Below, piece after piece: positions 16,692 through 53,806 of a stretch of DNA of 64,000 nucleotides (the stretch's first letter is position 1; each line of letters begins with the position of its first letter). The notes beneath the pieces are model-generated. The model saw nothing but the letters and a program-made list of their open reading frames with translations, did no database searches and was not told where the DNA came from. The translations under genes were made by a program, and so were the position numbers. The stretch covers positions 37,046-101,045 of the IMG/VR virus record IMGVR_UViG_3300023184_007611; one strand, given 5' to 3'. Source of the stretch: a virus.

Positions 16692-17078
16692 ATGAAATTT
16701 AAACTTTGGTTTGAAGCTGTCAATCAAAATGTATATGATTTTATAAATTATTTTAATAGACTTGGAAATCCCAATCCTTTAAGCGATGAAGCACATTATA
16801 TAATAGACAATAGAACTTTAATAAAATACACATTAACTACATCTATAGAACCAAATACAGTTTACTTTGATTCTCTTATTGTAATACCACAGAAAACAGG
16901 TGCTGGTACTAATTTCATGAATAAGATAATACAAAAGGCAGATGAGTTAAAAGTTAATATTTCTTTACATGCAATACCATTGCCAACAAAAGATGAATTA
17001 AGTAAAGCAAATTTGTATAAATTCTACAGAAAATTTGGTTTCAAAGGAACTGAATATATGACTAGAAAACACAATTAA
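16692..17078 (+). CDS. GNAT acetyltransferase with MKFKLWFE leader
   Basis: QKTGAGTNFM (acetyl-CoA motif A) and LYKFYRKFGF. Confidence 0.75.
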   Translation: MKFKLWFEAVNQNVYDFINYFNRLGNPNPLSDEAHYIIDNRTLIKYTLTTSIEPNTVYFDSLIVIPQKTGAGTNFMNKIIQKADELKVNISLHAIPLPTKDELSKANLYKFYRKFGFKGTEYMTRKHN

Positions 17079-17405: not shown

Positions 17406-17855
17406 ATGAAAATAATTATGTTGTGCAACAACAATTTTAAAAATAAATTTAAAATGATAGATATTATTATGAGTTATTCACCTACTAATAATCAATCTTG
17501 GCTAGACCCTTCTGGAAATTTTCATCCTATTGATAGGAAAGATTCTGGAGATGGTTTTTTAACGCACGAACAATGGGCTAAAAATAAGGGATATAAATTA
17601 AAAGGATTATATAAAAAGGGATGGCTTAGAATTAAAAAATATGGTGATACATTGTGGGCGAGTAACGCTGAGAAAGTACCACCTAATTACAAACAAGAAA
17701 GAGAATTACAGAACTGGGCTAGTGAAAATCCAGTTTTTAAAAAAATTTCTTTTGATAATGGAGAAAAAGAAATAATTATTTGGTCTAGATTATCAGAATA
17801 TTACGAAGTAAATTTCAAAGAATGGTTTGATTCTAAAGAAAAAATAATTAATTAA
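17406..17855 (+). CDS. Hypothetical protein (WLDPSG..H..GWLR family); true start probably MSYSP at 17469
   Basis: TAGATA box 5 nt before ATG 17469; C-terminal NFKEWF motif. Confidence 0.6.
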   Translation: MKIIMLCNNNFKNKFKMIDIIMSYSPTNNQSWLDPSGNFHPIDRKDSGDGFLTHEQWAKNKGYKLKGLYKKGWLRIKKYGDTLWASNAEKVPPNYKQERELQNWASENPVFKKISFDNGEKEIIIWSRLSEYYEVNFKEWFDSKEKIIN

Positions 17856-24472: not shown

Positions 24473-25297
24473 ATGAGGAAAATATTTAAAAATCTATCTG
24501 GTGAAGGTTCATCTACGCCACCGCCTGCGACAACATCAGAGCCAACTACAACTGCTTCACCTACGACAACATTAGAGCCAACTACAACTGCTTCACCTAC
24601 GACAACATTAGAGCCTACTACAACACCACCTACTACAACACCACCTACTACAACTGCTTCACCTACGACAAAACCTCCTACTACTACTAAAAAACCTACA
24701 ACAACTACAACAACTACTACTCCAAATTGTGTTGCTGACCTTAAAACATATAAGTCGTATTGTTCGCAAGAAACTACAGACTTAGCAAGTAAAAAAGATA
24801 AAATAGCTTCACGCAAAACTAAATTATCAGATAAAAAAACTAAAGAAGGCGAATTGAAAACAGCACAACAAAATTATAAAGAAAATGTAAGTGCCTACAA
24901 AAAAGCTTTAGCAGCCAGAAACAAAGATATTGAAAACATTGCTGCACAAAAAAAAATAATTGCAGCAAAAACTAAAATAATTAATGATCCAAACTCAACT
25001 AAAAAAGCTAAAAATGATGCAATAATAGCAAAGAAAAATGCTATTGCTGCAAATGTAAAAAACCAAGCAAGTTATGATAAACATACAGCAACATATGAAA
25101 AAGCATTTAAAGATGCAAGTTTTTATGATAAATTGAAAAATTCTTTGGAAAGTTCAATTGCAAGTCTAACAAAACAAATTAATGCTTTAGATAAACAAAT
25201 ACAAGCCCTAACTGATAGCTTATCAGCACTTAATCAATCTAAGTCAGATTTAAGAAATACTATGGTTGATAGAGGATGCAATGAGCCTTCTTGCTAA
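24473..25297 (+). CDS. Thr/Pro linker + Cys-bracketed coiled-coil protein
   Basis: AAGGAG SD; PTTT repeats, PNC, long heptad region, C-terminal GCNEPSC. Confidence 0.7.
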   Translation: MRKIFKNLSGEGSSTPPPATTSEPTTTASPTTTLEPTTTASPTTTLEPTTTPPTTTPPTTTASPTTKPPTTTKKPTTTTTTTTPNCVADLKTYKSYCSQETTDLASKKDKIASRKTKLSDKKTKEGELKTAQQNYKENVSAYKKALAARNKDIENIAAQKKIIAAKTKIINDPNSTKKAKNDAIIAKKNAIAANVKNQASYDKHTATYEKAFKDASFYDKLKNSLESSIASLTKQINALDKQIQALTDSLSALNQSKSDLRNTMVDRGCNEPSC

Positions 25298-25337
25298 TAA
25301 ATGATCATCATAAGCAATAAAATATATAAATAAATCT

Positions 25338-27056
25338 ATGGACTTTAAAAAATGGTTATTATTAATTGAAACAGATGTTAAGAACTGGGAAAATGAAATA
25401 AAATCTTCTTCTTACAGTAGATCTTTTGCATTTGAAAATTGGTTTCCTACAGAAGGCAGAGTTTATATTCCATTTGAATCAGAAGAATCAGAAGATTCAA
25501 AAATTGATAAAGATATAGAAAACTATTTTAAAGACCATGAAAAGTATGAAATATTAGATTATCCTAAAGGATTAGCTGCTGATAAAATTTCAAAAAGACC
25601 AATGAAAATTGGAAAAATATTAGAAATGGAAGCTAAAAAAGAAGAAAATAAAATAAAATCATCTTATGAAAACAAACAAATTTCAGATATTAAATATCAA
25701 GACGAATTAAAATGGCATAAAGAATACTACAAAGGCCTTTTATCTACATTCACTTCGTCTAAGTATAGAGTTGGAGTTAAATCTACATCACCATATATGA
25801 TAGTCTTCAGTAGCATTCCTGAAGATATTGCTGCAATGTCTACTAATCGTAATTGGACATCATGTATGAATCTTCAAGGTGGAGCAAACAGAGAAAGCGT
25901 ATTTTGTGAAATAAAAAATGGTGGATTTATAGCTTATCTTTGTCTTAAAGATGATAAAAATATTGAAAAACCATTAGCAAGAGTGCTTATCCGTAGATTT
26001 GATAATAAAGCAGGTAAATCAATAGCAGTATTAGAAGAAAGTGTTTATGGAAATTCTTTAGATGGATTCGAACAACAAGTTCAAAAATGGATTGATTCAA
26101 AACAAGGTAAAATAAAACCAGCTAAATATATTCGCAAAGGTGGCTGGCATTCAGATACATTTGGAACTGCTGACCCTGATGATAGTGTTCAACGACAACG
26201 CAGAGATATGACAAAAATATTTTATCCCAAAACAGCTGATGGTCTGTTTAAAATGCTAGAGAAAAAAAGAGAACCAGAAGTCACAAGAGACATATTACAA
26301 AAGTTACTTGATCCAAATTTAGTACTTGATGAAGAAAACAAAACTAAACTTATTAATTTAATAAACTCTGAATGGACTATCAATACTTTTGTATACAATC
26401 TTTACGCTGCTGATTTCAAAAGAAAATTATTTTTAAAATATCCTGAACTTTTAAATAACCAAGAATTTTCTAATTTAAGAACTTATGATCGAGAAAAATT
26501 AGCTAGAAATAATCCAAAATTTAAAGAACTTCAAAAAGATTTAGCAATTAATGCAATATTATCTTTTGACCCAAGCAATCCATCTTTAAAAATACACAAT
26601 CCTGAATATGGTAGACCAGAAGCTTACAGTCAAATTACTGATATTGTTTTAGATTTTTCTGGTACAGGCAAATTAACAGAACCTTTAATTCGTAAATTAG
26701 TTGAAATTTCAGAATACTTTTTAAAAATATATGAAGCTGAAAAAGATAAAAGTTGGGGAGGGCCATTTGGAATCATCAAACATATCCTTGGTTTTTTAAG
26801 CAATGGAGATGCAGATACACCTACTGTCATAAAATTTTACAGTCGTTTATTACCATATTTTAACGATGATTTATTTATGGATGGATTAGGAACTGCATTG
26901 GCTCGATTAGGAGAAAATGGCAGACAATTTTTGCCATTTTTACAACAAAAATTACAAGAATCTAAAGATAATAAATATATGACAGAAAAATATGAATATG
27001 TTATAGATTCTATTGAAAATGGTACTGGTAGATCAAATAAATATAAATTTTATTAA
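25338..27056 (+). CDS. Leader-bearing hypothetical protein (MSTNRNWTSCM domain)
   Basis: MDFKKWLLLIE leader; TATAAATA box upstream. Confidence 0.7.
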   Translation: MDFKKWLLLIETDVKNWENEIKSSSYSRSFAFENWFPTEGRVYIPFESEESEDSKIDKDIENYFKDHEKYEILDYPKGLAADKISKRPMKIGKILEMEAKKEENKIKSSYENKQISDIKYQDELKWHKEYYKGLLSTFTSSKYRVGVKSTSPYMIVFSSIPEDIAAMSTNRNWTSCMNLQGGANRESVFCEIKNGGFIAYLCLKDDKNIEKPLARVLIRRFDNKAGKSIAVLEESVYGNSLDGFEQQVQKWIDSKQGKIKPAKYIRKGGWHSDTFGTADPDDSVQRQRRDMTKIFYPKTADGLFKMLEKKREPEVTRDILQKLLDPNLVLDEENKTKLINLINSEWTINTFVYNLYAADFKRKLFLKYPELLNNQEFSNLRTYDREKLARNNPKFKELQKDLAINAILSFDPSNPSLKIHNPEYGRPEAYSQITDIVLDFSGTGKLTEPLIRKLVEISEYFLKIYEAEKDKSWGGPFGIIKHILGFLSNGDADTPTVIKFYSRLLPYFNDDLFMDGLGTALARLGENGRQFLPFLQQKLQESKDNKYMTEKYEYVIDSIENGTGRSNKYKFY

Positions 27057-27144
27057 TTTAAAAAATATCTGACCCAATTGTGAAGATATTTTGAATAATG
27101 CACAACAATATAACATATTCTAATTAATGTGATATAAATATCAC

Positions 27145-27822
27145 ATGAAAGATGCCATCATTATATCAGATATTCATCTAGGCAGCGATAATTGCCAAGC
27201 TAAAGATTTAAACCACTTTCTCGATAATCTACCGCTTACCAAAAGACTCATACTAAATGGTGATGTTTTTGACTCTTGGGACTTCAGAAGACTAAAAAGT
27301 AGCCACTTCAAAATATTAGCAAAATTAAGACATCTATCAACTTTAATAGATGTTATCTGGATTCATGGAAATCATGATGGCCCTAGTGAAATAGTATCTC
27401 ATTTACTCGGATCTAATGTTCATGAAGAATATATTTTTGTTTCAGGCGATAAGAAAATTATCTGCACTCATGGCGATAAGTTTGATGACTTTATAGCAGA
27501 TTACCCTTTAACTGTAAGGGTAGCCGATTATCTATATCACTTTCTACAAAAACTTGATAATGATTTCTATTGGGCTAAATTAGCTAAAATGAGCAGCAAA
27601 ACTTTTTTGAAATGTATCGAAAAAGTTAAAGCCAAAGCAATTAAATATAAAGATAAAATGAAATGTGATTTGATCTGCGTTGGACATACACATTGTCCAG
27701 AAGCAAATGATGGCATCTACTTTAATTCAGGATGCTGGACCGAAAAAGCTTCTACATTCTTGCTGGTTGATAATGGTACTATTACTTTGGAGAAATATGA
27801 AGAAAATTATATTAGTATCTGA
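27145..27822 (+). CDS. plcP: LpxH-like metallophosphoesterase of PlcP (phospholipase C) type
   Basis: SDIHLG, NGDVFD, GNHD (His; LpxH has GNRD), HGD, GHTH, NSGCW; overlaps a GT4 gene. Confidence 0.7.
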   Translation: MKDAIIISDIHLGSDNCQAKDLNHFLDNLPLTKRLILNGDVFDSWDFRRLKSSHFKILAKLRHLSTLIDVIWIHGNHDGPSEIVSHLLGSNVHEEYIFVSGDKKIICTHGDKFDDFIADYPLTVRVADYLYHFLQKLDNDFYWAKLAKMSSKTFLKCIEKVKAKAIKYKDKMKCDLICVGHTHCPEANDGIYFNSGCWTEKASTFLLVDNGTITLEKYEENYISI

Positions 27823-28768
27823 TACATCTTACCCTGATGTAAATGGTGTTGCTACTACCATGTATAACTACCAATGTAATATAAAAGAATCATGTCATCT
27901 TTTGTCAAGTCATGATTTCAAGTCTTTCAACTGCCCTTTCTCTAATGATGTCAAACTTGCTTATGATGTCGAATTTGATAAAGATCTATTCACTGGTAAC
28001 TTCGCTGTGCATATTTCTACAGAAGGTACGCTAGGACTTTCTACAAGAAAATTCTGCTTGCAAAATGATATTAAATTTACCACATCTTATCTTACTATGT
28101 TCCCAGAATATATAAAATCTTATACTGGCATTCCATTATTCATCACAAGAGCTTACTTTAAATGGTTTCATAGTAAATCATCTAAAGTACTTTGCTGCAC
28201 TAATGACCTTATCAATAAACTATCTTGGCTAAATCATAATAATATGAAAGTATCTCCAAAAGGCGTAAACCTTGATTTCTTTAAATGTAAAAGTGATCTC
28301 ACCAATAACAATACCGCACTCTATGTCGGCAGAGTATCGAAAGAAAAAAACTTAGATGCATTCTGTCAATCTACTCTACCTATACAAAAAATTGTAGTAG
28401 GTGATGGGCCTCTTCTTCCTTACTATAAACAAAAATATAAAGATGTTTATTTCTTAGGCAAAAAAACTGGGGATGAACTAATCCAAGCATATCATAATGC
28501 CGATGTATTTGTATTTCCTTCTAAAACAGATACCTACGGATTAGTTATGCTTGAAGCTTTATCTTGTGGTCTGCCTGTTGCTGCTTATCCAATTAATGGT
28601 GCTTTAGATCTACAAGATGAAAAAACGGTATTCTGCAATGAAATATTAGATGTAGCTATATCAAATGCATTTTCTAATCTAGATGTTAAAGCATGTAGAG
28701 AACATGCTGAACAATATAGCTGGAGTATTGCTACTGATAAATTCTTGAATAATTTGATTTTTAATTAA
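27797..28768 (+). CDS. GT4 glycosyltransferase, Agt-like (glycosyl-diacylglycerol synthase)
   Basis: VSD..YPDVNGV, HISTEGTLG, FTTSY..FPEY, YVGRVSKEKNL, FPSKTDTYGLVMLEA; start at MKKIILVSD. Confidence 0.8.
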   Translation: MKKIILVSDTSYPDVNGVATTMYNYQCNIKESCHLLSSHDFKSFNCPFSNDVKLAYDVEFDKDLFTGNFAVHISTEGTLGLSTRKFCLQNDIKFTTSYLTMFPEYIKSYTGIPLFITRAYFKWFHSKSSKVLCCTNDLINKLSWLNHNNMKVSPKGVNLDFFKCKSDLTNNNTALYVGRVSKEKNLDAFCQSTLPIQKIVVGDGPLLPYYKQKYKDVYFLGKKTGDELIQAYHNADVFVFPSKTDTYGLVMLEALSCGLPVAAYPINGALDLQDEKTVFCNEILDVAISNAFSNLDVKACREHAEQYSWSIATDKFLNNLIFN

Positions 28769-29079
28769 AAAAACAATAGCCAGCAAAACAAAAATATCTG
28801 AAATAATAAAATGCTAATTCCAATTGTAAATCCATACTTGTGATTGCTTATCAATATCTTTTTCCAAATCATCAAGCTTAAACATGTTCCAAACATCTTT
28901 AACGCTGAAAATAAAGCAACCGATCCAGAGTCTAACCTTATTAGCCAAACACCTAATAAATTCTTTTCTTCATATATCAATACATTTTGAAATCTTATTA
29001 TAAGATATAAATCTACCGCACTTATTGATAATATCATTGTGAATAAAAACCAAAAAGCAATGTTTTTTGTTGTTGTCAT
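28765..29079 (-). CDS. Small membrane protein (DUF5658-like)
   Basis: Three hydrophobic helices with D..L and E-x-N motifs. Confidence 0.55.
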   Translation of the reverse strand: MTTTKNIAFWFLFTMILSISAVDLYLIIRFQNVLIYEEKNLLGVWLIRLDSGSVALFSALKMFGTCLSLMIWKKILISNHKYGFTIGISILLFQIFLFCWLLFF

Positions 29080-29228
29080 ATTACCTATCTATATGAATAA
29101 ATTATTTAATTATCAAAGTTGCCAATACTTCATAAATCCTTCACATTAATTGATGTATTTTTATAAAAATTTTTTTAAAAAAAACAATATATAAAGTAAG
29201 ATTATTTTTAACTACTAAGGAGAATACT

Positions 29229-30269
29229 ATGGGAGCAACTTCAAACGAAGGCGTAGGTCAAGGTTCAGTATCAAATATTTATCCAAAAATTTTAAATGAT
29301 GTTGTAAAATCAGAAAATCTTGTTTCTTCAGGTTTTACTGGCATATTAAGCATTGTTGGTAGCGATACCAATGCTTTAACTATTATATCAGGGCCAAGTG
29401 ATGGAGGCCCAAGTGATAATGCACAAAACTTGAATTTATATGGTGGAACTGGTAATTCAACTGGCGACAACGATGGTGGTAATATTGAAATTATTGGTGG
29501 TGTTGGTAATGGCGATGGTGAAGGTGGTGATGTTTTTATCGGTGGTGGTGAAGGTGGCCCAGATTCATCTTATAGCGGAGAGGTAACCATTGAAGGTGGT
29601 TATGGTGCTGATGATGAGGTTGATGGTGGTGATGTTTATATTTATGGTGGGCCAGGAAGTTTTGACAGCGGAAACTTTGGTAATGGTGGCCAAATCTACA
29701 TGGCAGCTGGTACTGGAGCTAGTGGCGGTGGTAATGGCGGTGATTTTACTGTATATGCTGGTGAAGGAAGAGGAGATGGTGGTAATGGTGGCAGTATTTC
29801 ACTTAATGCTGGCGATTATGATGGCGATTTCTCGCAAGCTGCTGGATATGTAGAAATAGTTGCTGGTAGTGTTTCTAATGATGGTACTGTTGCTGGAAAT
29901 GTACAAATATATGCTGGTAATTCCTATTCCAGTAAAAATGTAATTGGTGGAGATATTAATCTTCAAGCAGGTCTTGGCTCAGTAAATGGTCGTGGTGGTG
30001 ATGTTAACTTGGTTGCTGGCAATAGTGCTGGAACAGATAGGGGTGGTGATATTAATTTGAGTGCTGGCAATAACTCTGGTGCTGGCAGAGAAGGTCATGT
30101 TTATCTAAATTCCATGCCAAGAATGCCAGTATATGCAAATGCTACCGCAAGAGATGCTGCTGCTGGCATTGTAACCAACGGCATGTTTTGTTACAACACA
30201 GCGACAAGCAACATAGAAGTTTATGTTGGTGGAGCATGGAAGAGTGTTAACACATCTGCAATTGTTTAA
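29229..30269 (+). CDS. Gly-rich beta-solenoid putative fibre/virion protein
   Basis: MGATS N-terminus; repeated GGD-V/I-x-I-x-(A/G)-G; C-terminal GMFCYNT...VYVGGAW fibre-like motif. Confidence 0.6.
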   Translation: MGATSNEGVGQGSVSNIYPKILNDVVKSENLVSSGFTGILSIVGSDTNALTIISGPSDGGPSDNAQNLNLYGGTGNSTGDNDGGNIEIIGGVGNGDGEGGDVFIGGGEGGPDSSYSGEVTIEGGYGADDEVDGGDVYIYGGPGSFDSGNFGNGGQIYMAAGTGASGGGNGGDFTVYAGEGRGDGGNGGSISLNAGDYDGDFSQAAGYVEIVAGSVSNDGTVAGNVQIYAGNSYSSKNVIGGDINLQAGLGSVNGRGGDVNLVAGNSAGTDRGGDINLSAGNNSGAGREGHVYLNSMPRMPVYANATARDAAAGIVTNGMFCYNTATSNIEVYVGGAWKSVNTSAIV

Positions 30270-30290
30270 TTACAAATAAACTATTAAACT

Positions 30291-30328
30291 AAAAACTCTT
30301 TTTCATTAAATCGAAGAAGAGTTTTTTT
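30291..30328 (+). terminator. Intrinsic terminator
   Basis: aaaaactctt..aagagttttttt hairpin with T tract. Confidence 0.7.
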
Positions 30329-30351
30329 ATTTTCACACTTATATAAAGTAC

Positions 30352-30807
30352 ATGGAAATTAATAAAAATTACTGGATTAAAGAATTAGCTCCTCCTTATT
30401 CGCCTAATGAAGAAGATATAAAAATTTATAACTATAATTTATTAAAAGGAAGTGTATTGCTTTTAGGTTGTACACATAAGTTAATAACTTTAAGTGATTG
30501 TCAAATGGATATAGATCCTTGGTATGAAGGTTCAAATGTTATAGTACAAGAATGGACAACAAATAGAAAATCTTACACGAATATTATAGGAGATGGAGTT
30601 TTAAATTTTACCAAAGAAGCAACTGATAATTTATTATTAATGTGTGCTAATCACAGTAAAGTATTTGTAGCAAGATCATTTAATGAGAAGTTACCAGAAA
30701 TGAAGATAGCTAATTTCTTCCCAACCGAAAATGATTTTAATATAAAACCTAAACAAACAATAAAATTCGATAAATATTCTTTTTACATTTGGAATTTTAT
30801 TTCATGA
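30352..30807 (+). CDS. Degenerate SAM-methyltransferase-like protein
   Basis: VLLLGCT and IIGDGVLN motifs; coupled to the next gene by an ATGA overlap. Confidence 0.5.
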   Translation: MEINKNYWIKELAPPYSPNEEDIKIYNYNLLKGSVLLLGCTHKLITLSDCQMDIDPWYEGSNVIVQEWTTNRKSYTNIIGDGVLNFTKEATDNLLLMCANHSKVFVARSFNEKLPEMKIANFFPTENDFNIKPKQTIKFDKYSFYIWNFIS

Positions 30808-31817
30808 ACGCAGATGTTTTAAAACTAATAAATAATTTGGAAAAGTCACAATGGAGTTTCAAACCAAATTTTAATTTCATTAAAGATTTTAAAATTATGA
30901 CAAGATCAGATTTACAAAATTTAAAAATGGAAAAAGGATATTCCACTTGTAAAAGTTCTGGATCAACAGGTGAACCAGTTTCAGTTGAAAAGTCATATTA
31001 TGATTCTGTGTGGTTTGCTGCTAGTAATTTAAGAGAGATCATCTGGAGAAAATGGGATGTCTCTAAAAACATGGCAACAATTAAACCTAATATTAATATT
31101 TGCGATATGAATTCTTGGGGGCTTCAAGCAAAAAATCAAGGTAATGTATATTGCATGAATTATCAACCAGTTTCAGTAATACAGAAGTGGTTAGAAGAAA
31201 AGAACCCACATTACATTAGTTGTTTGCCTTCTATATTAAAGCAATTAGATTTATCTAAAATTAGTAATTTTATAGATAGCAAAGGAACTGGAGAAAAAGG
31301 TGGTACAAATTATTCAAGTGAAGAATGTGGAACAATAGCAATTACATGTCCAGATAATAAAAATGTATATCATGTAATGGAAAACCATATCGTTGAAGTT
31401 GATACTGATGGAGGATTAATAATATCAACTCTTTCAAACAAATATATAAGAAGATATAAACATGGAGATCATATTGAATTAGGCACTTGTCATTGTGGTA
31501 GATCATTGCAAACTATAAAAACAATACAAGGTAGAACAAGAAATATGTTTATAATGCCAAACGGTGATAAAAAATGGCCTTTGATTGGAAGTTTAGAATT
31601 TGATAAATTTGGTATTAAAAGATATAAGGCAATACAAGTATCAATAGATCAATTAGAATTACATATAATAGCTAATCCTTTAAATGATAGAGAAATTGAA
31701 TTAATTAAATTAGTTCAAGATAAATTAGACAGTTCAATTAAAGTTAACATAAAATATGTTGAAGAATTTTTAGGTTACAAACATGAAGAATTTGTATGCT
31801 TGATTAACACTTTATGA
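30804..31817 (+). CDS. Phenylacetate-CoA ligase/CapK-like adenylate-forming enzyme
   Basis: SSGSTGEP, YSSEECG, RYKHGD, CHCGRSL, GR motifs. Confidence 0.8.
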   Translation: MNADVLKLINNLEKSQWSFKPNFNFIKDFKIMTRSDLQNLKMEKGYSTCKSSGSTGEPVSVEKSYYDSVWFAASNLREIIWRKWDVSKNMATIKPNINICDMNSWGLQAKNQGNVYCMNYQPVSVIQKWLEEKNPHYISCLPSILKQLDLSKISNFIDSKGTGEKGGTNYSSEECGTIAITCPDNKNVYHVMENHIVEVDTDGGLIISTLSNKYIRRYKHGDHIELGTCHCGRSLQTIKTIQGRTRNMFIMPNGDKKWPLIGSLEFDKFGIKRYKAIQVSIDQLELHIIANPLNDREIELIKLVQDKLDSSIKVNIKYVEEFLGYKHEEFVCLINTL

Positions 31818-31851
31818 AATAAATATTAAACTATTGATCAATATATAAACT

Positions 31852-33267
31852 ATGAACTTTAAAAGCTGGCTATTAATAACTGAAATGGCAAAGTCCTTTT
31901 CACCTAAATATCTTGAAACAAATAGTTTACAGGCTTTATCTGAAATTGAACGAAATCCTGTTTTAAAAGCTAGATATAAAATATTGGTATCTGAATGGGA
32001 TAAAAAAAATAATACATTAACTCCTAAAGATGTAACGCTAGGAAGTGAAAAAGAGATAAATTGGAAATGCATTAAGAAAAAACACACATGGTCAGCACCA
32101 CTTAACAGTAGAACAAGAGGTACTAATTGTCCTTGTTGTTCAAACTTTATAGCTTGTAAAGATAATAATTTACAGTATTTATCTAAAAATTTACCAGAAT
32201 CTGATTTAAAAGCTAGATATAAAAGATTGGTATCTGAATGGGATAAAGAAAATAATATATTAACTGCTAAAGATGTACTGCCAGGAAGTAGGCAAGAGAT
32301 AAATTGGAAATGTAAAGAAGGACATCTATGGCCAGCACCAATTAGTAGTAGAACAACATTGGGTTCAAATTGTCCTGATTGTTCATCTACAAACAAAAGA
32401 GTTACTAAAGACTATAATTTACAAGCTTTATCTGAAAATTTACCAGAATCTGATTTAAAAACTAGATATAAATTTTTGGTATCTGAATGGGATAAAGAAA
32501 ATAATATATTAACTCCAAGTGATGTAACGCCAAAAAGTGGTAAAGAGATAAATTGGAAATGCATTAAGAAAAAACACACATGGTCAGCACCACTTAGCAA
32601 TAGAACAAAAGGTTATAATTGTCCTTGTTGTTCAAACCAAGAAGTTTGTAAAGATAATAATTTACAAGCTTTATCTAAAACTTTACCAGAATCTTATTTA
32701 AAAGCTAGATATAAAAGGTTGGTATCTGAATGGGATAAAGAAAATAATATATTGACTCCTAAAGATGTGACGCCAGGAAGTGATAAAGAGATAAATTGGA
32801 AATGTAAAGAAGGACATCTATGGGTAGCACCACTTTCTCGTAGAACAGGAGTGGAAGCAAATTGTCCTACTTGCAATCAATCTAAAGGTGAAGAAAAAAC
32901 ATATGAAATATTACAAAAGTACATAAGTCCAACACAAATTAAACGCCAATATCGGGATACAGATTGTAGAGGAGATTGCTTTTCTTTAAGATTTGATTTT
33001 ATAGTAGAAATAAATAAAAAAAAATACCTTATAGAATATAACGGTCAACAACATTACAGACCAGTATTTGGTTCTACACCAGAGCAAAGACAATCTGCTT
33101 TTGAAAAAGCTCAAAGGTATGATAAAGTTAAATTAGAATATTGCAGAAATAAAAACATTCCTTTTTTGGTAATTCCATATACGAAATATAAAAACATCGA
33201 AACAATAATAAGCAGTTTTCTTAAAACAAAAACTTTTGATAGTAAATTTGCAGAATTAGGATTGTAA
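31852..33267 (+). CDS. Leader + 4 treble-clef Zn-ribbon repeats + PD-(D/E)xK (Vsr/DUF559-like) endonuclease
   Basis: SEWD..WKC..H.W.A...RT...CP.C x4; SKGE ... FDF ... IEYNGQQHY ... D..K. Confidence 0.82.
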   Translation: MNFKSWLLITEMAKSFSPKYLETNSLQALSEIERNPVLKARYKILVSEWDKKNNTLTPKDVTLGSEKEINWKCIKKKHTWSAPLNSRTRGTNCPCCSNFIACKDNNLQYLSKNLPESDLKARYKRLVSEWDKENNILTAKDVLPGSRQEINWKCKEGHLWPAPISSRTTLGSNCPDCSSTNKRVTKDYNLQALSENLPESDLKTRYKFLVSEWDKENNILTPSDVTPKSGKEINWKCIKKKHTWSAPLSNRTKGYNCPCCSNQEVCKDNNLQALSKTLPESYLKARYKRLVSEWDKENNILTPKDVTPGSDKEINWKCKEGHLWVAPLSRRTGVEANCPTCNQSKGEEKTYEILQKYISPTQIKRQYRDTDCRGDCFSLRFDFIVEINKKKYLIEYNGQQHYRPVFGSTPEQRQSAFEKAQRYDKVKLEYCRNKNIPFLVIPYTKYKNIETIISSFLKTKTFDSKFAELGL

Positions 33268-33274
33268 ATAAACT

Positions 33275-34453
33275 ATGAACTTTAAACATTGGCTGCTAAT
33301 CTCTGAAATGGCAATATTTTCACCTAAATATCTTGAAACAAATAGTTTACAGTATTTATCTGAAAAGGCATCAGATCCTGTTTTAAAAGCTAGATATAAA
33401 AGATTGGTATCTGAATGGGATGGCCCTGAAAATAAAAAAGAGCTTAATCTTACTCCAAGTGATGTAACACCTGGCAGTAAAAAAAAGATAAATTGGAAAT
33501 GTCTTGAAAAAGGACATAAATGGGCAGCAACTCTCAACAGTAGAACAAATGGTGGAAATAATTGTTCTTGTTGTTCAAACCAACAAGTTTGTAAAGATAA
33601 TAATTTACAGTATTTATCTGAAAAGGCATCAGATCCTGTTTTAAAAGCTAGATATAAAAGATTGGTATCTGAATGGGATAAAGACAACACATTAACTCCT
33701 AAAGATATTACGCCAGGAAGTGATAAAAAGATAAATTGGAAATGTAAAAAAGGACATATGTGGAAAGCAGAGCTTAGTAGCAGAACAAGAGATGAGAGTA
33801 ATTGTCCTTGTTGTTCAAATTTTAAAGTTTGCGATGACAATAATTTACAGTATTTATCTGATAATGAAGAAGATCTTGGAAAAAGAGAGAGATATCAAAG
33901 GTTGGTATCTGAATGGGATAAAAACAATATATTAACTCCTAAAGATGTATTGCCAGGCACTGGTCAATTTATAAATTGGAAATGTAAAAAAGGCCATACA
34001 TGGGAAGCATCTCTTGTTAGTAGAACAGGATTGAATTTAAAAACTAATTGTCCTATTTGCAATGAATCTAAAGGTGAAGAAGAAATATTTAAAATATTAC
34101 AAAATTACATAAGTCCAGCACAAATTAAACGCCAATATAAAGATATAGATTGCAGAGGAGATTGCCTTCCTTTACCATTTGATTTAATAGTAAAAATAAA
34201 TGACAAAAAATACTTTATAGAATATAACGGTGAACAACATTACAGACCAACATTTGGTTCTACACCCGATGAAAGGCAATCCGTTTTTGAAAAAACTCAA
34301 AGGTATGATAAAGTTAAATTAGACTATTGTAGAAGTAAAAACATTCCTTTTTTGGTAATTCCATATACGCAATATAAAAACATCGACACAATAATAAGCA
34401 GTTTTCTTAAAACAAAAACTTTTGATAGTAAATTCGCAGAATTAGAATTGTAA
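33275..34453 (+). CDS. Leader + 3 treble-clef Zn-ribbon repeats + PD-(D/E)xK endonuclease (tandem paralog)
   Basis: Same architecture; C-terminal domain nearly identical to the preceding gene. Confidence 0.82.
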   Translation: MNFKHWLLISEMAIFSPKYLETNSLQYLSEKASDPVLKARYKRLVSEWDGPENKKELNLTPSDVTPGSKKKINWKCLEKGHKWAATLNSRTNGGNNCSCCSNQQVCKDNNLQYLSEKASDPVLKARYKRLVSEWDKDNTLTPKDITPGSDKKINWKCKKGHMWKAELSSRTRDESNCPCCSNFKVCDDNNLQYLSDNEEDLGKRERYQRLVSEWDKNNILTPKDVLPGTGQFINWKCKKGHTWEASLVSRTGLNLKTNCPICNESKGEEEIFKILQNYISPAQIKRQYKDIDCRGDCLPLPFDLIVKINDKKYFIEYNGEQHYRPTFGSTPDERQSVFEKTQRYDKVKLDYCRSKNIPFLVIPYTQYKNIDTIISSFLKTKTFDSKFAELEL

Positions 34454-34460
34454 ATAAACT

Positions 34461-36197
34461 ATGAACTTTAAAGAATGGTTATTATTATCTGAAAACACAA
34501 ATATTGCTCAATTATTAAAGCAATCCAATGATCCAATAATTAAACAAATTAAATCAAATGTAACAAAACTTGTAAATGCTTTCGCTCACAACATAAAAGA
34601 AAACATCAAATCCACTTTCATTAACTTTTATACTTGGAACTTTTATAATTCAAAAGAATCAAACTTTCAAACACACATTTATTCCACTAAAGATTATTTA
34701 ATGGCTAATTACCAAAAACTAAATTTAACCGATCCAAACTTCACACTTGAACAACTAACACAAGAATCAGATGAATGGCACGAAGAATTAGAAGCAAACC
34801 AAGCAATCCCAGCTAGAGAAGCTGAAACTTTTATAGATTTATCTCATTTAGGATCTCAATGGAAAGGCTGGCGATGGGTTTCCTTAGATCGTTATAAGTG
34901 CGAAATGGAAGCAAAAAGTGGTGGGCATTGTGGTAATGCTGCTGGTATAGAAGGAGATAACATACTATCTTTAAGAGATCCGCAAAATATAGCAAATCTT
35001 ACTTTTATCGAAAATAAAGGAATATTAGGCGAAATGAAAGGCATTAAAAATTCAAAACCATCTACAAAATTTCATCAACCAATAATAGAATTACTTAAAA
35101 ATGACAAAATAATAACCATCAAGGGCGGTGGGTATTTACCAAAAAATAATTTTTCATTAGATGATTTAAGTAATAAAGAAGAAATACTTAAATTAAAACC
35201 AGATTTGGATTTTGTAAACTATAATTCAAAACCAGAAAAAATAAAATATCTTACTGATGAAGACATTGAATATCTATTTGATAAAGCAAAAGACAAAGAA
35301 AAAATAGAAAATTTAGTTATTCAAAATAAACAAGATCTTTCCGATGACAATGTTCACCAGTTACTTAAAAATACAAAAAACACATACGAAATGTCAAAAA
35401 TAATAATTAAAAAGAACCCACAACTTTCTGATGCTATTGTTCTTTATTTACTTGAATTTGCACATGACAAAGACGATATGGCTAAAATTATTTTAAATAA
35501 CAAACCAACAATTTCTACTAAAGATGTTTCTACTTTACTTGATAAAGCAACTAACAAAGACGAAATAGCAAAATTAATTATTGAGAAAAATACAGAATAT
35601 GGAAGTAATAAAGTTGTTAATGATAATAAAATTTATTTCTTACTTTATCATGCAATTGATAAAGAAAGCATAGAAAAACTATTAGGAGCGTACAGCTTAA
35701 ATAAGCTTTTTGATAGTACTGTTGCTGAATTTCTTAAATCTTCTAAAGATAAAGACAAAACGGCAGAAATAATCATAAAATACAAAACAAAACTTTCTAG
35801 TAACAATGTTTATAATTTGCTTCATTTTGCAAAAAATAAAGCAAGTATAGCGAAACTATTAGGAGCATATAATATAAGCAATATTTATGAGTTTGATATT
35901 TCTAATTTGCTCCATTTTGCAATCGACAAAGACAAACTGGCGGAAATAATCATAGATTATAAAACAAATTTTGATAATGAGAGTGTTTATATTTTGCTTT
36001 ATTATGCAGTTAACAAAGAAAATATAGCAAAGCTGTTAGGAACAGATAATATAAACAAGCTCGAATTAACTTCTATTAATCGTCTGCTTGATTTTCCGCC
36101 AGATAAACAAAAAATGGCACAAGTTTTAAATCACTATCACACAAAGAAAACACCAGAAATTCAAGAGCTAATAGATAAATACCTACATGAACTTTAA
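34461..36197 (+). CDS. Leader + PcfJ-like domain + helical repeats
   Basis: WHEEL ... EAKSGGHCG ... ILSLRD; repeated LLxxAxDKxxxAxxI. Confidence 0.62.
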   Translation: MNFKEWLLLSENTNIAQLLKQSNDPIIKQIKSNVTKLVNAFAHNIKENIKSTFINFYTWNFYNSKESNFQTHIYSTKDYLMANYQKLNLTDPNFTLEQLTQESDEWHEELEANQAIPAREAETFIDLSHLGSQWKGWRWVSLDRYKCEMEAKSGGHCGNAAGIEGDNILSLRDPQNIANLTFIENKGILGEMKGIKNSKPSTKFHQPIIELLKNDKIITIKGGGYLPKNNFSLDDLSNKEEILKLKPDLDFVNYNSKPEKIKYLTDEDIEYLFDKAKDKEKIENLVIQNKQDLSDDNVHQLLKNTKNTYEMSKIIIKKNPQLSDAIVLYLLEFAHDKDDMAKIILNNKPTISTKDVSTLLDKATNKDEIAKLIIEKNTEYGSNKVVNDNKIYFLLYHAIDKESIEKLLGAYSLNKLFDSTVAEFLKSSKDKDKTAEIIIKYKTKLSSNNVYNLLHFAKNKASIAKLLGAYNISNIYEFDISNLLHFAIDKDKLAEIIIDYKTNFDNESVYILLYYAVNKENIAKLLGTDNINKLELTSINRLLDFPPDKQKMAQVLNHYHTKKTPEIQELIDKYLHEL

Positions 36198-37899
36198 AAG
36201 CTGGCTATTAATAACTGAAGCAAAGAAATCAAGCGACATTGCCAAAGAACTTCTCGGCAACGATGATTTATTTAAAAAAATAAAATCTATCATTCCAACA
36301 AATATACCAGAAAAATTACAAGGTCAATTACTTCCTATCGCTGCATTCTACTACAACCAAGAAGAACCACAAATTGTGGTTCTAAAAGACTACTTGGAAG
36401 ATTATGCCAATCTTGTAAAAAATCAAAAAATGAACATCATTACAGTAAAAGATGACCTTACTGTTGATGGCGATTTTAAATCTTTTATCCATTGGACTGA
36501 AATAATTGATGTTTTAACCCATGAAGGCAAAGTTATCAATACACCAATACAAGGCGATCTTGAAGGCCAAGAAGTAATCGAACATTCACCAGACCTTAAG
36601 ATAAAGGTTTATCTGGCAAACTCAGCAAATCAATGTATCGTACTCGGCAAAGGTGAATCTTTCTGTATATCAAGACACGGCCCACATAATATGTTCCAAA
36701 CTTACAGAGATACTAAAGTATCAACTTTCTACTTCGTTTATGATAACACAAGAACTGATGACCTTGCAATTACTGTAGTTGATGTAACAGAACATGGTAT
36801 TGAACTTACAGATCGAAAAAACGACACAGCAAAAACTATGCAAGATCCTTATCAAACTACACCAAAAAGAATAACATCAGACCCAGATTTATACTTTAAA
36901 TATTTAAAAGAAAAAGGAATTGATACAACTGTATTCAAAAATATACCAAAATCACCAGAAGAAGAAGCCGAACAGGAAAAATTAGGTAAAACAAATTATA
37001 ATTTAAATTGGTTTAAAGCACTATCACCAATAGAAAAATCTAATTACATAGGAAGAGTACATAGACTTTCAGATCCTCAATTTGATTACATACACGATAA
37101 CAATATTGCTTCATTATTAAAACAATATGTTAAGACTGGTTTGAAACTTGAAAATTATCAGCTTAAAAAAGTTATTGCTAAAAAAGAATTAAAAGATATT
37201 TATTTACATAATAGATTGATATTAGATAGGCAAAATGAAGATCTTTCTAAAGAAGAATTTAATTTATTTACACCAAAACAACAAGAGGAGTTTTATAATG
37301 TTACTGATGAATTAAAAATTCACAAAGCTCTTCAAATTGAAGACTTTTCTCTGGTAACAGAATTGATCGAAAAAGGACAAAGCGTCCCATATTATGCTGC
37401 TGGTCACGCAATAAAGGCAGATAGACTTGACCTATTAAAATATTTTGTAAAACACGGTATGATATTACAAGACTCTAATTCGATTATGTATGCAGTAAGA
37501 TATGGCAGGCTTGATATTTTAAAATACTTGATTGAAGAAAAAAATATTAATGTAGTCCCAACTGATATCGAAGAAGCTTTTAGAAAAGATAATGTTGATA
37601 TTATAAGATACTTAATTGATGAAAAAAAACTCCGCATGCCTTATAATGCTGTTGATATTGCAGCAAGTAATGGAAGTATTAATGTTTTAAAATACTTGAT
37701 TGATGAAAAAAATAAAATTTTTACATCTAGTAATGTAAAATCTGCAAGCCTTTCTGGAGAACTTGATGTTTTAAAATACTTTTTTGATGAAAAAAGTTTT
37801 ATGCTAGAACCTAAAGATTTTCCATTTACTATCAATAATGCAAAAACACAAATAGTTAAAGATTATTTAATACAAAAACAAAAAGAACAAAATAAATAA
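36187..37899 (+). CDS. Leader + GxGxxFCIS domain + ankyrin-like repeats
   Basis: Paralogous to 17852; C-terminal AxxxGxLDILKYLI repeats. Confidence 0.72.
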   Translation: MNFKSWLLITEAKKSSDIAKELLGNDDLFKKIKSIIPTNIPEKLQGQLLPIAAFYYNQEEPQIVVLKDYLEDYANLVKNQKMNIITVKDDLTVDGDFKSFIHWTEIIDVLTHEGKVINTPIQGDLEGQEVIEHSPDLKIKVYLANSANQCIVLGKGESFCISRHGPHNMFQTYRDTKVSTFYFVYDNTRTDDLAITVVDVTEHGIELTDRKNDTAKTMQDPYQTTPKRITSDPDLYFKYLKEKGIDTTVFKNIPKSPEEEAEQEKLGKTNYNLNWFKALSPIEKSNYIGRVHRLSDPQFDYIHDNNIASLLKQYVKTGLKLENYQLKKVIAKKELKDIYLHNRLILDRQNEDLSKEEFNLFTPKQQEEFYNVTDELKIHKALQIEDFSLVTELIEKGQSVPYYAAGHAIKADRLDLLKYFVKHGMILQDSNSIMYAVRYGRLDILKYLIEEKNINVVPTDIEEAFRKDNVDIIRYLIDEKKLRMPYNAVDIAASNGSINVLKYLIDEKNKIFTSSNVKSASLSGELDVLKYFFDEKSFMLEPKDFPFTINNAKTQIVKDYLIQKQKEQNK

Positions 37900-37902
37900 A
37901 CT

Positions 37903-39168
37903 ATGAACTTTAAAAGCTGGCTAATACTATCTGAAAATATAATCGTAAAATGGCAAAAAGATGATGCTGTTTTGATTCCTGCTAAAGATGTCATTTCTTT
38001 TGATTTTTATTATCAATGGGATAAAGGACATTCTGAATACTTTATAGGTGCTTTTAAAGCTGAAAAAAATGGCTACTCTTCAATTGGTGCTAAGTCAACT
38101 CATGTAGGCATAATTAGAAATTCTCCCCTTCATGCTGGTTCAGGAGCAGATTATGGGTTTATTAAAAACTTAATACAAATAATTCAAAAAAATGGATTAA
38201 AACCCATTCCTTATAAAGAAGAAGGTACATTCATTGATAAACATATTTCTAATGCTGAAAAAGAAATAGGACAAAAACTTGATGTAGATCTAGTAAAAAC
38301 TGGCTTTACAACTGGCCAAGAATTACCTGATTTTGAACTAGGACAATCTGCCACTCATCAATTGACAAAAAGTGTTTCTGTTTCTAGAGCTACAGGATCA
38401 TGGGCACAATTCTTTGAAACTATTGATGCAACATCTTTAATTAATAAACTTGTAGATTTTATGGAACAAGCTGCAAAACCTTTGTTAGATAATGATCTGC
38501 TAGACTTTATTGAAATTATTAATAGAAAAAGCGGAAACCACAGAACAATTTATTCTTCTAAAGGTAAAAAAGATTCAGAAGACTGGAAGGCTAATAATAT
38601 TAAAGCTGTATCTCAATTAAAATTTTATGTTGATAAATACTTAACCAATGCTCCTTTTTTAAAAAAAGAATTACTAAAAATAATAAACATAGAAGGATCT
38701 AAAAATGCAGATAAATGGTTCGGGGCAAAAGCAGTACCTAAAGATTATGCGTTACCATTAGATAAATTGTTTGAATTAAACAACAACTCATATGCAGAAG
38801 ATAGTATTATTGATGCGTTTCTTAAAGCAATAAATAATCAAGATAAAATAGAACAATTGGAAATTCTATCAAAAAATCAAAACCTTGATTCCGTTTATTA
38901 TTTAAAGAGTTATTTTTGGGCTAACGAATTCTATGAAGATATGTTTACATCTGATAATATTTTTAATTATCTTATTAATGTTTATGAAATAGTTGTTAAA
39001 CATGGAAAAGCACTTAAGTCTGCATTACAAGAACATTTTGATTACTTCTTGAAAAATATCAAAGAATCATTAGAAGAAGCTTTATCTGATAAGCCTTTTT
39101 TAAGCAAAAATAATATTAAATATTTATCAGAAATAGCTCCTGTTATAGGACTTAAAATTTTACAATAA
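37903..39168 (+). CDS. Leader-bearing hypothetical protein
   Basis: MNFKSWLILSE; no recognisable domain. Confidence 0.65.
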   Translation: MNFKSWLILSENIIVKWQKDDAVLIPAKDVISFDFYYQWDKGHSEYFIGAFKAEKNGYSSIGAKSTHVGIIRNSPLHAGSGADYGFIKNLIQIIQKNGLKPIPYKEEGTFIDKHISNAEKEIGQKLDVDLVKTGFTTGQELPDFELGQSATHQLTKSVSVSRATGSWAQFFETIDATSLINKLVDFMEQAAKPLLDNDLLDFIEIINRKSGNHRTIYSSKGKKDSEDWKANNIKAVSQLKFYVDKYLTNAPFLKKELLKIINIEGSKNADKWFGAKAVPKDYALPLDKLFELNNNSYAEDSIIDAFLKAINNQDKIEQLEILSKNQNLDSVYYLKSYFWANEFYEDMFTSDNIFNYLINVYEIVVKHGKALKSALQEHFDYFLKNIKESLEEALSDKPFLSKNNIKYLSEIAPVIGLKILQ

Positions 39169-39175
39169 ATAAACT

Positions 39176-40201
39176 ATGAACTTTAAACAATGGCTATTAA
39201 ATGAAACCTTTAAACAGACCCCACTGTTAAAGAATCTACATGATTATTTAACAAAACAACACATAAGCGATAAACAATTCATGATTGAATTCTTGAATTG
39301 GTTTGATGAACATCAAGATGATTTAAGAGAATTAGAAGTAGATTGGAAAGATGCAAAAAAACCATATGTACTAGACCATGAAACAAACCAAGAATATGAT
39401 CCTGAAGAAGCTGATGATCATCAATATGCAACTAAGGAATTCTATACTTCAGCAATAGAAATGTATTTAAACGATACATTGAAATTAAACTTAAATAAAG
39501 ATTTTAAACATGTCCAAAAAATAAAAGAGTTTTTAGATAAACCAGAAAATTACTATTTTCTCAGTAGTTTTAAAGAATATATACTTCATAATTATATAAA
39601 CTTTGAAGATTCCATGGACCAAACTTCTGGACATAGATTTTATATTTTTAAAAAATTATTAAATCCAAATAACTGGCTTCTACATTTTACAAATAATGCA
39701 GAATCTATTAAAAGAAATGGATTTAAATTTGGCGTGACAAATTTTGATGATCTGCCTCTTACTAGAATATATGGCTACGATAGAAATAAAGCTGGATATA
39801 ATTTTGCATACCTTTCTAAAGATTATCACACCTCAGACATACCAACTACATATTTAAATACTCATGATCATAAAGAATCTCCAAATAGCGGACTTCTTAT
39901 GTTTAAAAGCTCTGGAGTTCTTGTAGATAATCTTGCAGATCACAATGAGGAAGTTATATTTGATGGAAGTAGTATAAATCCAAAAAATATTGTCGTAATT
40001 AAACCAGAGCGAAGAAAAATATTATTTGTTAACAACCCAGAAAATGGTGGTAAAACAGATGTGTCACCACAAGATAATTATGAAAAATGGATCGTTAAAT
40101 CACAAAACTCCAAATTACCAGACCCTTTCTCTGGTACTATTCAAGATGCAATTCAATGGGTAAAAAATAATTGGAATACTAGTAAAAATATTATATTATA
40201 A
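39176..40201 (+). CDS. Leader + putative ADP-ribosyltransferase-fold domain
   Basis: LLHFT..AESIKRNGF, GYNFAY, EEVIF match the H...Y...E ART strand pattern. Confidence 0.5.
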   Translation: MNFKQWLLNETFKQTPLLKNLHDYLTKQHISDKQFMIEFLNWFDEHQDDLRELEVDWKDAKKPYVLDHETNQEYDPEEADDHQYATKEFYTSAIEMYLNDTLKLNLNKDFKHVQKIKEFLDKPENYYFLSSFKEYILHNYINFEDSMDQTSGHRFYIFKKLLNPNNWLLHFTNNAESIKRNGFKFGVTNFDDLPLTRIYGYDRNKAGYNFAYLSKDYHTSDIPTTYLNTHDHKESPNSGLLMFKSSGVLVDNLADHNEEVIFDGSSINPKNIVVIKPERRKILFVNNPENGGKTDVSPQDNYEKWIVKSQNSKLPDPFSGTIQDAIQWVKNNWNTSKNIIL

Positions 40202-40393: not shown

Positions 40394-42790
<2,397 letters not shown>

Positions 42791-46577: not shown

Positions 46578-47180
46578 ATGAACTTTAAACAATATTTTGA
46601 AAATGAAGAAATAGCAAATACAATATTCCTGTCAAACCATAAACAAAAGTTTGATAATATATTTGATGTGCTTAAAACTTTTGCAATTGAAGAGAATTTG
46701 CCACACCCAACAACTTATTTAAATCATGGAACTAATGCAATTATATTCGATACTACAAATCCAAATGTAATAGCAAGAATAGTATGGCTGAATTCACCTA
46801 TGCTTGGTAGGAAAAGCTGTGATAAAGTTATGGCACAAAAACAATTTCAAAACTCTGGCGGTGTATGTAGAATATATCTCCATGAAGATAATTATGAAGA
46901 TATTGATGGAAATACACACGAAATTACCTATAAGGAAAAATTAAATACTAAATGGCAAAATTATATAAAAGAACAATATCCAAATGATGCAAATAATATT
47001 ATTAAAATACTATCAAATATGAATGCATCATATAGATATGAAGATTTAAATTATTTAAATGACTTTGATTCCCTAAAGAACCTCGTTAATGCAATAAGAC
47101 TTGGATTGCCAACATTTGACTTGCATGCTGATAATTTTGGCATAGATAAAAAAAATAACATAGTTGTTGTAGATTGTTAA
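46578..47180 (+). CDS. Leader + protein-kinase-like (APH/PK fold) domain
   Basis: LNHGTNAIIF Gly-loop, DLHADN catalytic loop, VVVD metal-binding Asp. Confidence 0.62.
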   Translation: MNFKQYFENEEIANTIFLSNHKQKFDNIFDVLKTFAIEENLPHPTTYLNHGTNAIIFDTTNPNVIARIVWLNSPMLGRKSCDKVMAQKQFQNSGGVCRIYLHEDNYEDIDGNTHEITYKEKLNTKWQNYIKEQYPNDANNIIKILSNMNASYRYEDLNYLNDFDSLKNLVNAIRLGLPTFDLHADNFGIDKKNNIVVVDC

Positions 47181-52887: not shown

Positions 52888-53050
52888 TCCACAACCTATA
52901 TAACTTAAAAGAGGATTTATTTTAAAGTATACTGGAAAAGAAAAAAGATTTATATTAAATGAAATACATACAAATAATAAATAATACATAACAACCAGAA
53001 ATTAAACAACTAATTAATAAATACTTATAATGAACTTTAAACATTGACTA

Positions 53051-53806
53051 TTACATTCCCTTTACACCTTCTAATTTAGCACCATCAAATTTACAACCAC
53101 TTAAATCAACTTTGCTATTACCATAATCCCTAAACTCTGCACCACTCAAATCAGCACCACTAAAATCAACATTTTCATATTTTTTAATCGTAGGACCGAA
53201 AATAGCACCTCTACAATCCGAATTAATTAATTTTACATTATTAAAATGACAACTGGCAAAGCGTTGATTTTTAAGTATTGAATTACTTAAATCAACATTA
53301 TTAAAAACACTTTCATTAAACCAAACAGGACCATTTTCAGCACTGAAATCTACAGCCCTCAAATTTACATTAATAAAATCCGCCCCAAATATTCTAACAC
53401 CTTTCCAATTAACACCAGTCAAAATAGCATTAGTAAAATTTGAATAGTGCAACACTGCATTAGTCAAATTAGCACCAGTCAAATTAGCACCAGTCAAATT
53501 ATTCTCTTTCGCTTTAGTACTTCTTCCTTCATACCTGCTTAATATTCTTAGTTCTGCACCTTCTAAATTTGCACCAATTAAATTTGCATCCATTAGTTTT
53601 ACTTTTGTGAATTTTACATTGCTAAGATTAGCACCAGAAAGATTAGCCTTTCTAAAATTAGTACCTGCTAAATATGCACCAGTAAGATTAACATCTGCTA
53701 AATATGCACCAGTAAGATTCACATCATTGTATAAACGCAAACCAACCAATGTATCCGCATTTACACTGTAAATAACTGTTCCATTTTTTTTCTTTATATC
53801 TATCAT
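53051..53806 (-). CDS. Pentapeptide-repeat protein
   Basis: A(N/D)L(T/S)G repeats. Confidence 0.9.
   Translation of the reverse strand: MIDIKKKNGTVIYSVNADTLVGLRLYNDVNLTGAYLADVNLTGAYLAGTNFRKANLSGANLSNVKFTKVKLMDANLIGANLEGAELRILSRYEGRSTKAKENNLTGANLTGANLTNAVLHYSNFTNAILTGVNWKGVRIFGADFINVNLRAVDFSAENGPVWFNESVFNNVDLSNSILKNQRFASCHFNNVKLINSDCRGAIFGPTIKKYENVDFSGADLSGAEFRDYGNSKVDLSGCKFDGAKLEGVKGM

Follow-up and report, generated by a model that had tools for sequence, protein, structure and literature searches.

The DNA described here is a window of 64,000 nucleotides (bases 37046-101045 of the 101-kb IMG/VR record IMGVR_UViG_3300023184_007611, hereafter G000), and its subject is an array of six consecutive genes that begin with the same short coding sequence, called the tag below. 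G000, with 30% guanine plus cytosine (GC), has a CheckV completeness of about 30%, so the whole genome, that of a freshwater giant phage, should measure roughly 0.3 Mb. It and the relatives used for comparison (the close relative G001, of 87 kb, and G002, G003, G006 of 181 kb, G008 of 144 kb and G009-G014) are uncultured and known as metagenome contigs from short-read assemblies. The genes of the array, A1 to E, and the boxes in front of them are as follows (aa, amino acids):

31842-31851, + strand: first box, AT-rich TATATAAACT, abutting the ATG of A1; no Shine-Dalgarno motif.
31852-33267, + strand: A1, 471 aa, tag MNFKSWLLITE.
33265-34453, + strand: box TAAATAAACT and A2 (gene from 33275), 392 aa, tag MNFKHWLLISE; paralogue of A1.
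34451-36197, + strand: box and B (gene from 34461), 578 aa, tag MNFKEWLLLSE.
36174-37899, + strand: box GATAAATACCTAC and C (gene from 36187), 570 aa, tag MNFKSWLLITE.
37893-39168, + strand: box and D (gene from 37903), 421 aa, tag MNFKSWLILSE; matches no known family.
39166-40201, + strand: box and E (gene from 39176), 341 aa, tag MNFKQWLLNE.

The tag DNA ATGAACTTTAAA has eight exact copies within the window, against 0.11 expected from shuffles; they lie at 31852, 33275, 34461, 36187, 37903, 39176, 46578 and 53030. Six of these copies open the consecutive plus-strand open reading frames (ORFs) listed above, whose N-termini read MNFK(S/H/E/S/S/Q)WL...E, with the general form MNFKxWL(L)xxE, and close, from A1 to E, in ITE, ISE, LSE, ITE, LSE and LNE. 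Four of the genes have TAAATAAACT directly abutting their ATG (at 33265, 34451, 37893 and 39166; 0.00 expected). The first TAA of this box is the stop codon of the upstream gene at 33265, 34451 and 39166, and the second TAA plays this part at 37893. Box GATAAATACCTAC sits inside the B reading frame, and the final codons and stop of B are supplied by the next module. A1 and C are identical over their first 33 nt and then diverge. The first-pass annotation of this DNA had reported the common start of the six genes, the stop-bearing leader of four of them and the 33-nt identity, and all three were borne out; the further members that it listed (46578, 25338, 20200 on the minus strand, 16692 and 14215) do have tag-like starts, those of 14215 and 16692 being looser. 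On the whole contig, a loose pattern finds tag-like N-termini on 17 ORFs, namely the six of the array and 11 variants, which together make up 19% of the coding residues. Exact tag DNA is also found in 50 IMG/VR stretches, often in several copies per contig.

The bodies behind the tags are varied. A1 carries DUF4379 treble-clef zinc-finger repeats, four in number, with a nuclease-like domain at its C-terminal end; A2 likewise has DUF4379 repeats and a nuclease-like end. B is a helical-repeat protein that matches no family. C combines ankyrin repeats with an N-domain common to the tagged gene 17852-20200(-), to which it is 41% identical over about 430 aa; this domain gave no lead in the ESM Atlas. 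For E, several weak leads point to ADP-ribosyltransferase-type folds (Arr, DarT/PARP, Tpt1, Tox-ART-HYD1; ESM Atlas), and its invariant residues comprise H153-R154, G207-Y208-N209 and an E-E-V-I-F-D-G stretch. If the lead is real, E would be a parallel to Alt, which phage T4 packages. The AlphaFold2 model of E, built from nine sequences, was too poor to use (predicted local distance difference test, 42). Neither D, E nor the G002 EEIFPNKTATVYH family had a tblastn match among GenBank phages.

Such an array might be an ordinary tandem paralogue family, with N-termini alike by descent or gene conversion and no addressing role. A1 and A2 are indeed paralogues (59-66% identity), as are C and 17852-20200(-), and in these two pairs the earlier claim of unrelated cargo fails; the tags are, moreover, nucleotide-identical within one genome. 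The claim stands for B, D, E and the product of 25338, which have no detectable similarity to one another or to A and C past residue 11. Similarity stops abruptly after the Glu, and domains that are homologous occur on tagged as well as untagged proteins, so that we regard a plain paralogue family as very improbable.

The properties of the tag were assessed on 107 distinct tagged N-termini from six contigs and the 50 IMG/VR stretches, with 811 other ORFs as the control. Their consensus is F-K-x-W-L, followed in 100 of the 107 by an acidic residue 5-8 positions past the F. At the tag end, [LIVM]xE is present in 72 of 107 tags and in 119 of 811 other ORFs (15%), and conservation stops past this closing motif.

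This structure recalls a well-described signal. T-even phages place a conserved signal, the capsid targeting sequence (CTS), on diverse injected proteins (PMC3012670). In T4 the 10 residues at its start are enough for packaging; targeting involves residues 4 and 7, processing involves residues 8 and 10, and the protease gp21 cuts after L/I-x-E (Black review, PMC9026906). The CTS of IPI, IPII, IPIII and Alt, removed by gp21, is, as the tag would be, an N-terminal propeptide of 10-20 residues on unrelated proteins. It has an aromatic/hydrophobic pair three apart (Y4, F7) and then I8, to which the F and W of the tag, also three apart, and the following L would correspond, and both sequences close in L/I-x-E; in T4, an Asp in place of the Glu stops processing but leaves targeting intact. 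The one-residue-longer variants MQNFKEWL and MKSFNEWL restore the T4 numbering, and the variants MKSFQKFIESLD and MKTFSDFISLKE, found next to the head genes of relatives described below, bridge to the T4 sequence. T4 ipII and ipIII both start with MKTYQEFIAE and are nucleotide-identical there, ribosome site included, just as the tags of different array genes are nucleotide-identical. The spacing of F and W and the closing L/I-x-E thus support the proposal of the first-pass annotation, in which the tag would be a capsid-targeting propeptide in the style of T4.

The sequence in front of the tag invites a different explanation. A box of the form ATAAATA/TATATAA/TAAATAA, ending 2-7 nt 5' of the ATG, precedes 12 of 17 tagged genes in G000 and 11 of 14 in G001, compared with 6 of 112 and 9 of 101 other genes, respectively. 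Shine-Dalgarno-like motifs are present in front of 3 of the 17 and 1 of the 14 tagged genes, against about half of the others. These figures, together with codon biases to AAC at codon 2 and to CTA at codon 7 of the tag, would suit a conserved element that is mainly an RNA or DNA signal (a leaderless or coupled translation start, or a recombination repeat), with an incidental peptide. Such a signal would not need L-x-E retained through indels, however. Among the homologues of E (19 found, 8 aligned), all eight aligned ones retain the tag, with indels and changes at x, and it always closes in L-x-E. Tag-like N-termini occur near the head modules of clade members of 33-58% GC, and W, L and the closing E are conserved with varied codons across this range, which argues that the peptide, and not the DNA alone, is under selection. 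The box, for its part, was not found before the tagged genes of G002, G008 and some of G006, where ribosome sites are normal. Conversely, TAAATAAACTATG also stands 5' of the untagged gene at 13327 (window 13317-14187), whose Gly-rich product, with a signal-peptide-like start and long GGGFGQ repeats, is read as secreted. For these reasons the box is, as far as its distribution tells, a lineage-specific partner of the tag that lies outside the tag definition, and its promoter role is putative. Peptide conservation across GC contents and the unrelated cargo bodies contradict both a paralogue family and a purely RNA-level signal, and the latter, too, is improbable in our judgement.

The T4 late promoter, TATAAATA, is read by gp55; the array boxes resemble it, yet they end 4-5 nt before the ATG. 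In T4, the 8-bp TATA box is upstream of the start site, at a distance of about one helical turn (PMC2988020). If the box is read as a late promoter, the first transcribed base would be at the AUG or beside it and the mRNAs would be leaderless; inside the array, termination-reinitiation coupling is an alternative to leaderless mRNAs. A gp55-like ORF was detected with PHROG profiles in two of five records, the distant clade members G013 and G014 only (phrog_234, E ~1e-8). A direct protein search of five large clade records, a set not wholly the same as the former, found no gp55, and tblastn with T4 gp55 found no match on tag-rich contigs. Nor does such a box occur within 70 nt of the head genes in G006 and G008.

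How the cassettes change was read from the close relative G001. It matches the window at 95.3% identity in the left flank (27026-31809), 97.2% in cassette B (34451-36206), 95.9% in C (36175-37941) and 99.7% in D (37893-39177), whereas the A genes are only about 75% alike. Its array has an additional tagged gene (416 aa) ahead of A, a single A copy where G000 has two, and a 329-aa gene between C and D. B is followed there by a dead tag (MNFKQWLTNY-stop) and then by a 633-aa gene (MQNFKEWL), and E is missing. Read base by base, all junctions between the two contigs fall within the box-plus-tag module of about 45 bp. After B, the identity ends past ATGAACTTTAAA; after C, past tag codon 7, placing the crossover between codons 7 and 8; and after D, at TAAATAAACTAT. 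The differences between G000 and G001 are whole-gene indels and replacements bounded by a conserved repeat, as in the shuffling of T-even internal protein (ip) loci and PeSL cassettes. The first-pass annotation had asked whether breakpoints lie at the leader and had taken an array content fixed across relatives as speaking against its view; the breakpoints do lie there, and the content differs, with three extra cassettes, one A and no E in G001. Contigs of four other metagenomes also have many joints or ends at tags, and they were not used as evidence because their flanks measure 21-48 nt and the tag is itself a repeat.

In T-even phages, polymorphic ip loci are shuffled via conserved flanking regulatory elements, as PMC2839356 relates, citing Repoila 1994 and Comeau 2007. 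In ip loci and PeSL cassettes, as here, variable accessory genes lie between conserved regulatory repeats (PMC2839356, PMC4122927), and the repeat marks indel and replacement junctions between close relatives; the exchange is proposed to need no dedicated recombinase. Here, in contrast, the repeat includes the first codons, so that the putative addressing tag is also the crossover site. The repeat was also considered as a PeSL proper (early promoter plus stem-loop terminator) and is rather an analogue of one. Promoter-like and terminator-like sites are no commoner than in shuffles and none lies at the junctions, and no sigma-70-type promoter or stem-loop terminator stands out, which is a difference from PeSL cassettes; for PeSLs, inverse PCR has been applied to excised circles. 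A looser analogy is offered by integron cassettes, where a short repeat is the site of exchange for unrelated, promoterless or uniformly expressed genes. In the present array part of the repeat is coding sequence, and no integrase or attC-like structure was noted, although no dedicated search was made.

The link to a T4-type head is made by relatives. G006 and G008 carry tagged genes together with two head proteins: a capsid protein of the T4 Gp23 type (E 1e-88) and a prohead protease of the Peptidase_S77 (gp21) family, with E 1e-28 to 1e-30 and a PHROG match to head maturation protease at 9e-49. In G008 the protease gene is L058:9357-10052, on the minus strand. The order of the head genes is that of T4: a portal-sized gene, the protease, a scaffold-sized gene and the capsid protein. 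The portal-sized and scaffold-sized genes of G008 have no PHROG match and are assigned by size, order and composition only. In the scaffold-sized protein, [LI]xE occurs 5.4 times per 100 aa, about five times the average of 1.07. At the position of the T4 gp23 cut site (LTE65), the clade capsid protein reads LLE and LINE, and the clade protease seems to keep the cut specificity of gp21. These relatives, like T4, have a protease of the gp21 family and a capsid protein of the gp23 type, together with a putative scaffold in which cut motifs abound.

The capsid protein, 30-32% identical to gp23, marks out a clade to which at least 370 IMG/VR contigs belong, the longest measuring 533 kb. Its best GenBank match (73%) is in the unannotated 595-kb uncultured phage LR756511.1, followed by T4-like cyanophages (30%). 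About 35 G000 genes are common to G006, G008 or G002, mostly at 30-60% identity, and among the tagged genes of G006 are homologues of 46578, of the C-domain of E and, with 40% identity over 541 aa, of cassette C. From these common genes, the lineage of the window is taken to be a low-GC branch within this clade of T4-related huge phages. An origin from a giant eukaryotic virus (nucleocytoplasmic large DNA virus), first suggested by RCC1, ankyrin repeats and low GC, was ruled out, because the double-jelly-roll capsid PF04451 was not found in five related records and the clade capsid protein is of the HK97/T4 type.

Two side observations concern these head modules. In LR756511.1 (503509-544981; L175), the module has the same order as in G008, and a 1076-aa protein starting with MEFREWFRSAE is encoded about 3.4 kb downstream of the capsid gene (24847 in the locus); the sequence after this start is similar to that of a cargo family with tagged members in IMG/VR contigs. 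The G008 head module (L058:1-5200, 12100-13800) is flanked on both sides by at least 10 small genes (76-228 aa) with MKSF(N/K/Q/H)xW/F starts, in two clusters that recall T-even ip loci.

We therefore consider it reasonably likely, on sequence grounds, that the N-terminus MNFKxWL(L)x(S/T/N)E, of 10-11 residues, is a capsid-targeting propeptide of the T4 kind carried by exchangeable cassettes. A short N-terminus common to unrelated proteins would also suit any system with one partner and many clients, and the tag might be the recognition sequence of another partner, such as a modifying enzyme, a chaperone or the machinery for export, for import into a compartment or for degradation. This is unlikely given that the tag resembles the tested T4 signal position by position, that its closing motif is the one cut by a protease family encoded by the clade and that small tagged genes cluster by the G008 head module. 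No radical-SAM gene was found on five tag-bearing contigs (598 kb) in searches that detected their controls, and as a signal peptide the tag would be too short and too polar.

Several points weigh against a capsid-targeting propeptide. G000, at about 30% of a genome, has no capsid, protease or scaffold gene, and no head genes were found on G000-G003 or G009-G012, all of them fragments; the link to a T4-type head hence runs via relatives of 30-58% protein identity, and those that bear head genes have a higher GC content (36% vs 30%). One third of the tag-like N-termini are without a strict [LIVM]xE. AAC encodes 21 of 25 Asn residues at codon 2 of the tag, against 23% genome-wide, so a nucleotide-level constraint exists too; this bias fits module homogenisation or an RNA-level constraint. 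On three contigs, tagged ORFs take up 19-24% of the coding residues, and the longest has 918 aa; this would be a large load to package. Finally, repeats of 33-45 bp in metagenome assemblies could in principle misjoin cassettes.

If the tag is a capsid-targeting propeptide, it would bind its cargo to the scaffolding core during prohead assembly, and the gp21-family prohead protease would clip it off after the closing L/I-x-E. The mature cargo, comprising nuclease-like, ankyrin and family-less proteins, would then stay in the head and enter the host with the DNA. Each cassette boundary has the AT-rich box and the first tag codons as a repeat of about 45 bp, and ordinary homologous recombination between its copies would add, delete and replace whole genes, as has been suggested for T-even ip loci and PeSL cassettes.

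The first-pass annotation had put this forward as the best candidate for an undescribed system. That judgement cannot be kept, since the T-even CTS and the polymorphic ip loci have been described (PMC3012670, PMC2839356), and the defining features that can be read from sequence alone are seen here, the head genes on relatives and the counterparts of the T4 targeting residues as a resemblance. The system is probably a much enlarged variant of the capsid-targeting and internal-protein system of T4; the principle is known from T4, whereas the scale seen here is not. It differs from T4 in the tag itself (MNFKxWLLxxE vs MKTYQEFIAE), in number (T4 has a handful, whereas this 101-kb fragment holds at least 17 tag-like ORFs), in cargo size (up to 782 aa here and 918 aa in G001, against mostly 8-20 kDa) and in the presence of tagged genes on both strands; unlike the T4 system, it is known from sequence alone. 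Other giant phages also load many proteins into the head. In phiKZ, 201phi2-1 and SPN3US, ejection or inner-body proteins are cut by a gp21-related protease at S/A-x-E (PMC5694885, PMC9026906), and the removal of a propeptide after Glu resembles the process proposed here. The propeptides of phiKZ type are, however, mostly longer than 100 residues and do not form one common short tag, their motif is S/A-x-E, and the capsid protein here is T4-like.

A broader reading is possible, and we hold it only tentatively. In it, a worldwide freshwater clade with genomes of 0.3-0.6 Mb would use recombinase-free, integron-like cassettes, the module of about 45 bp serving at once as address, as a signal for leaderless or near-leaderless expression and as crossover site. 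Up to one fifth of the coding capacity in plastic regions would then consist of fast-changing injected effectors, of nuclease-like, possibly ADP-ribosyltransferase-like, NUDIX, nucleotidyltransferase, C39 protease and ankyrin types. Should the tag act as in T4, an 11-residue motif would suffice to list, from sequence, the injected proteins of uncultured huge phages, which are the likeliest to meet host defences first and of which most are without a known family. The tag would also be a concrete and testable example of one sequence serving both as an addressing signal and as a cassette recombination site, and it would supply candidate tags with which to bring foreign proteins into large capsids, a use that the T4 signal already has.

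Beyond the array, tagged genes occur on both strands and across plastic regions, and the features of the window that bear on them are these:

12954-13319, + strand: untagged protein of 121 aa with HxT motifs HHMTIN and HITVAV.
14215-17078, + strand: looser variants, at 14215 (MKSFNSWM), 15871 (MKSFEIYLIE) and 16692 (MKFKLWFE).
17852-20200, - strand: dispersed gene, 782 aa, tag MNFNFQEWLLILEE; paralogue of C.
25338-27056, + strand: dispersed gene, 572 aa, tag MDFKKWLLLIE, box ATATAAATAAATCT.
46578-47180, + strand: dispersed gene, 200 aa, tag MNFKQYFENEE, box TATATAAGCT; weak PHROG kinase match.
53030-53047, + strand: orphan module, with a B-like 3' end, a box and then ATGAACTTTAAACATTGA (MNFKH-stop); no gene.

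The first of these indicates that the tag is a separable add-on, because its G002 homologue (L061:5224-5631(-); 43% identity) bears a 15-residue extension, MNFKNWIENRE..., that the protein of the window does not have. DUF4379/nuclease proteins likewise exist both with and without the tag. Pfam families found on 56 tagged proteins were all of accessory types, namely ankyrin, DUF4379, NUDIX, PolyA_pol-type nucleotidyltransferase and C39 peptidase, and no replication or structural family was among them. Where the window has the single gene 17852-20200(-), G001 has tandem paralogues of 813 and 918 aa (24685-29886; L079:6685-11883), whose first 24 residues are identical. The orphan module at 53030 looks like the scar of a lost cassette, and the dead tag behind the B gene of G001 is similar to it.

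Some neighbouring genes may also be mentioned. The HxT-type motifs of 12954-13319 are reminiscent of 2H phosphoesterases. Converging on the orphan tag, 53051-53806(-) encodes a 251-aa pentapeptide-repeat protein (ANLTGANL-type). Directly 3' of the array, 40394-42790 encodes a protein of 798 aa; Thr/Pro runs (TTTTEAP, PEPTTT) make up most of its first ~390 residues, and after them come Cys-containing repeats and a C-terminal half that is coiled.

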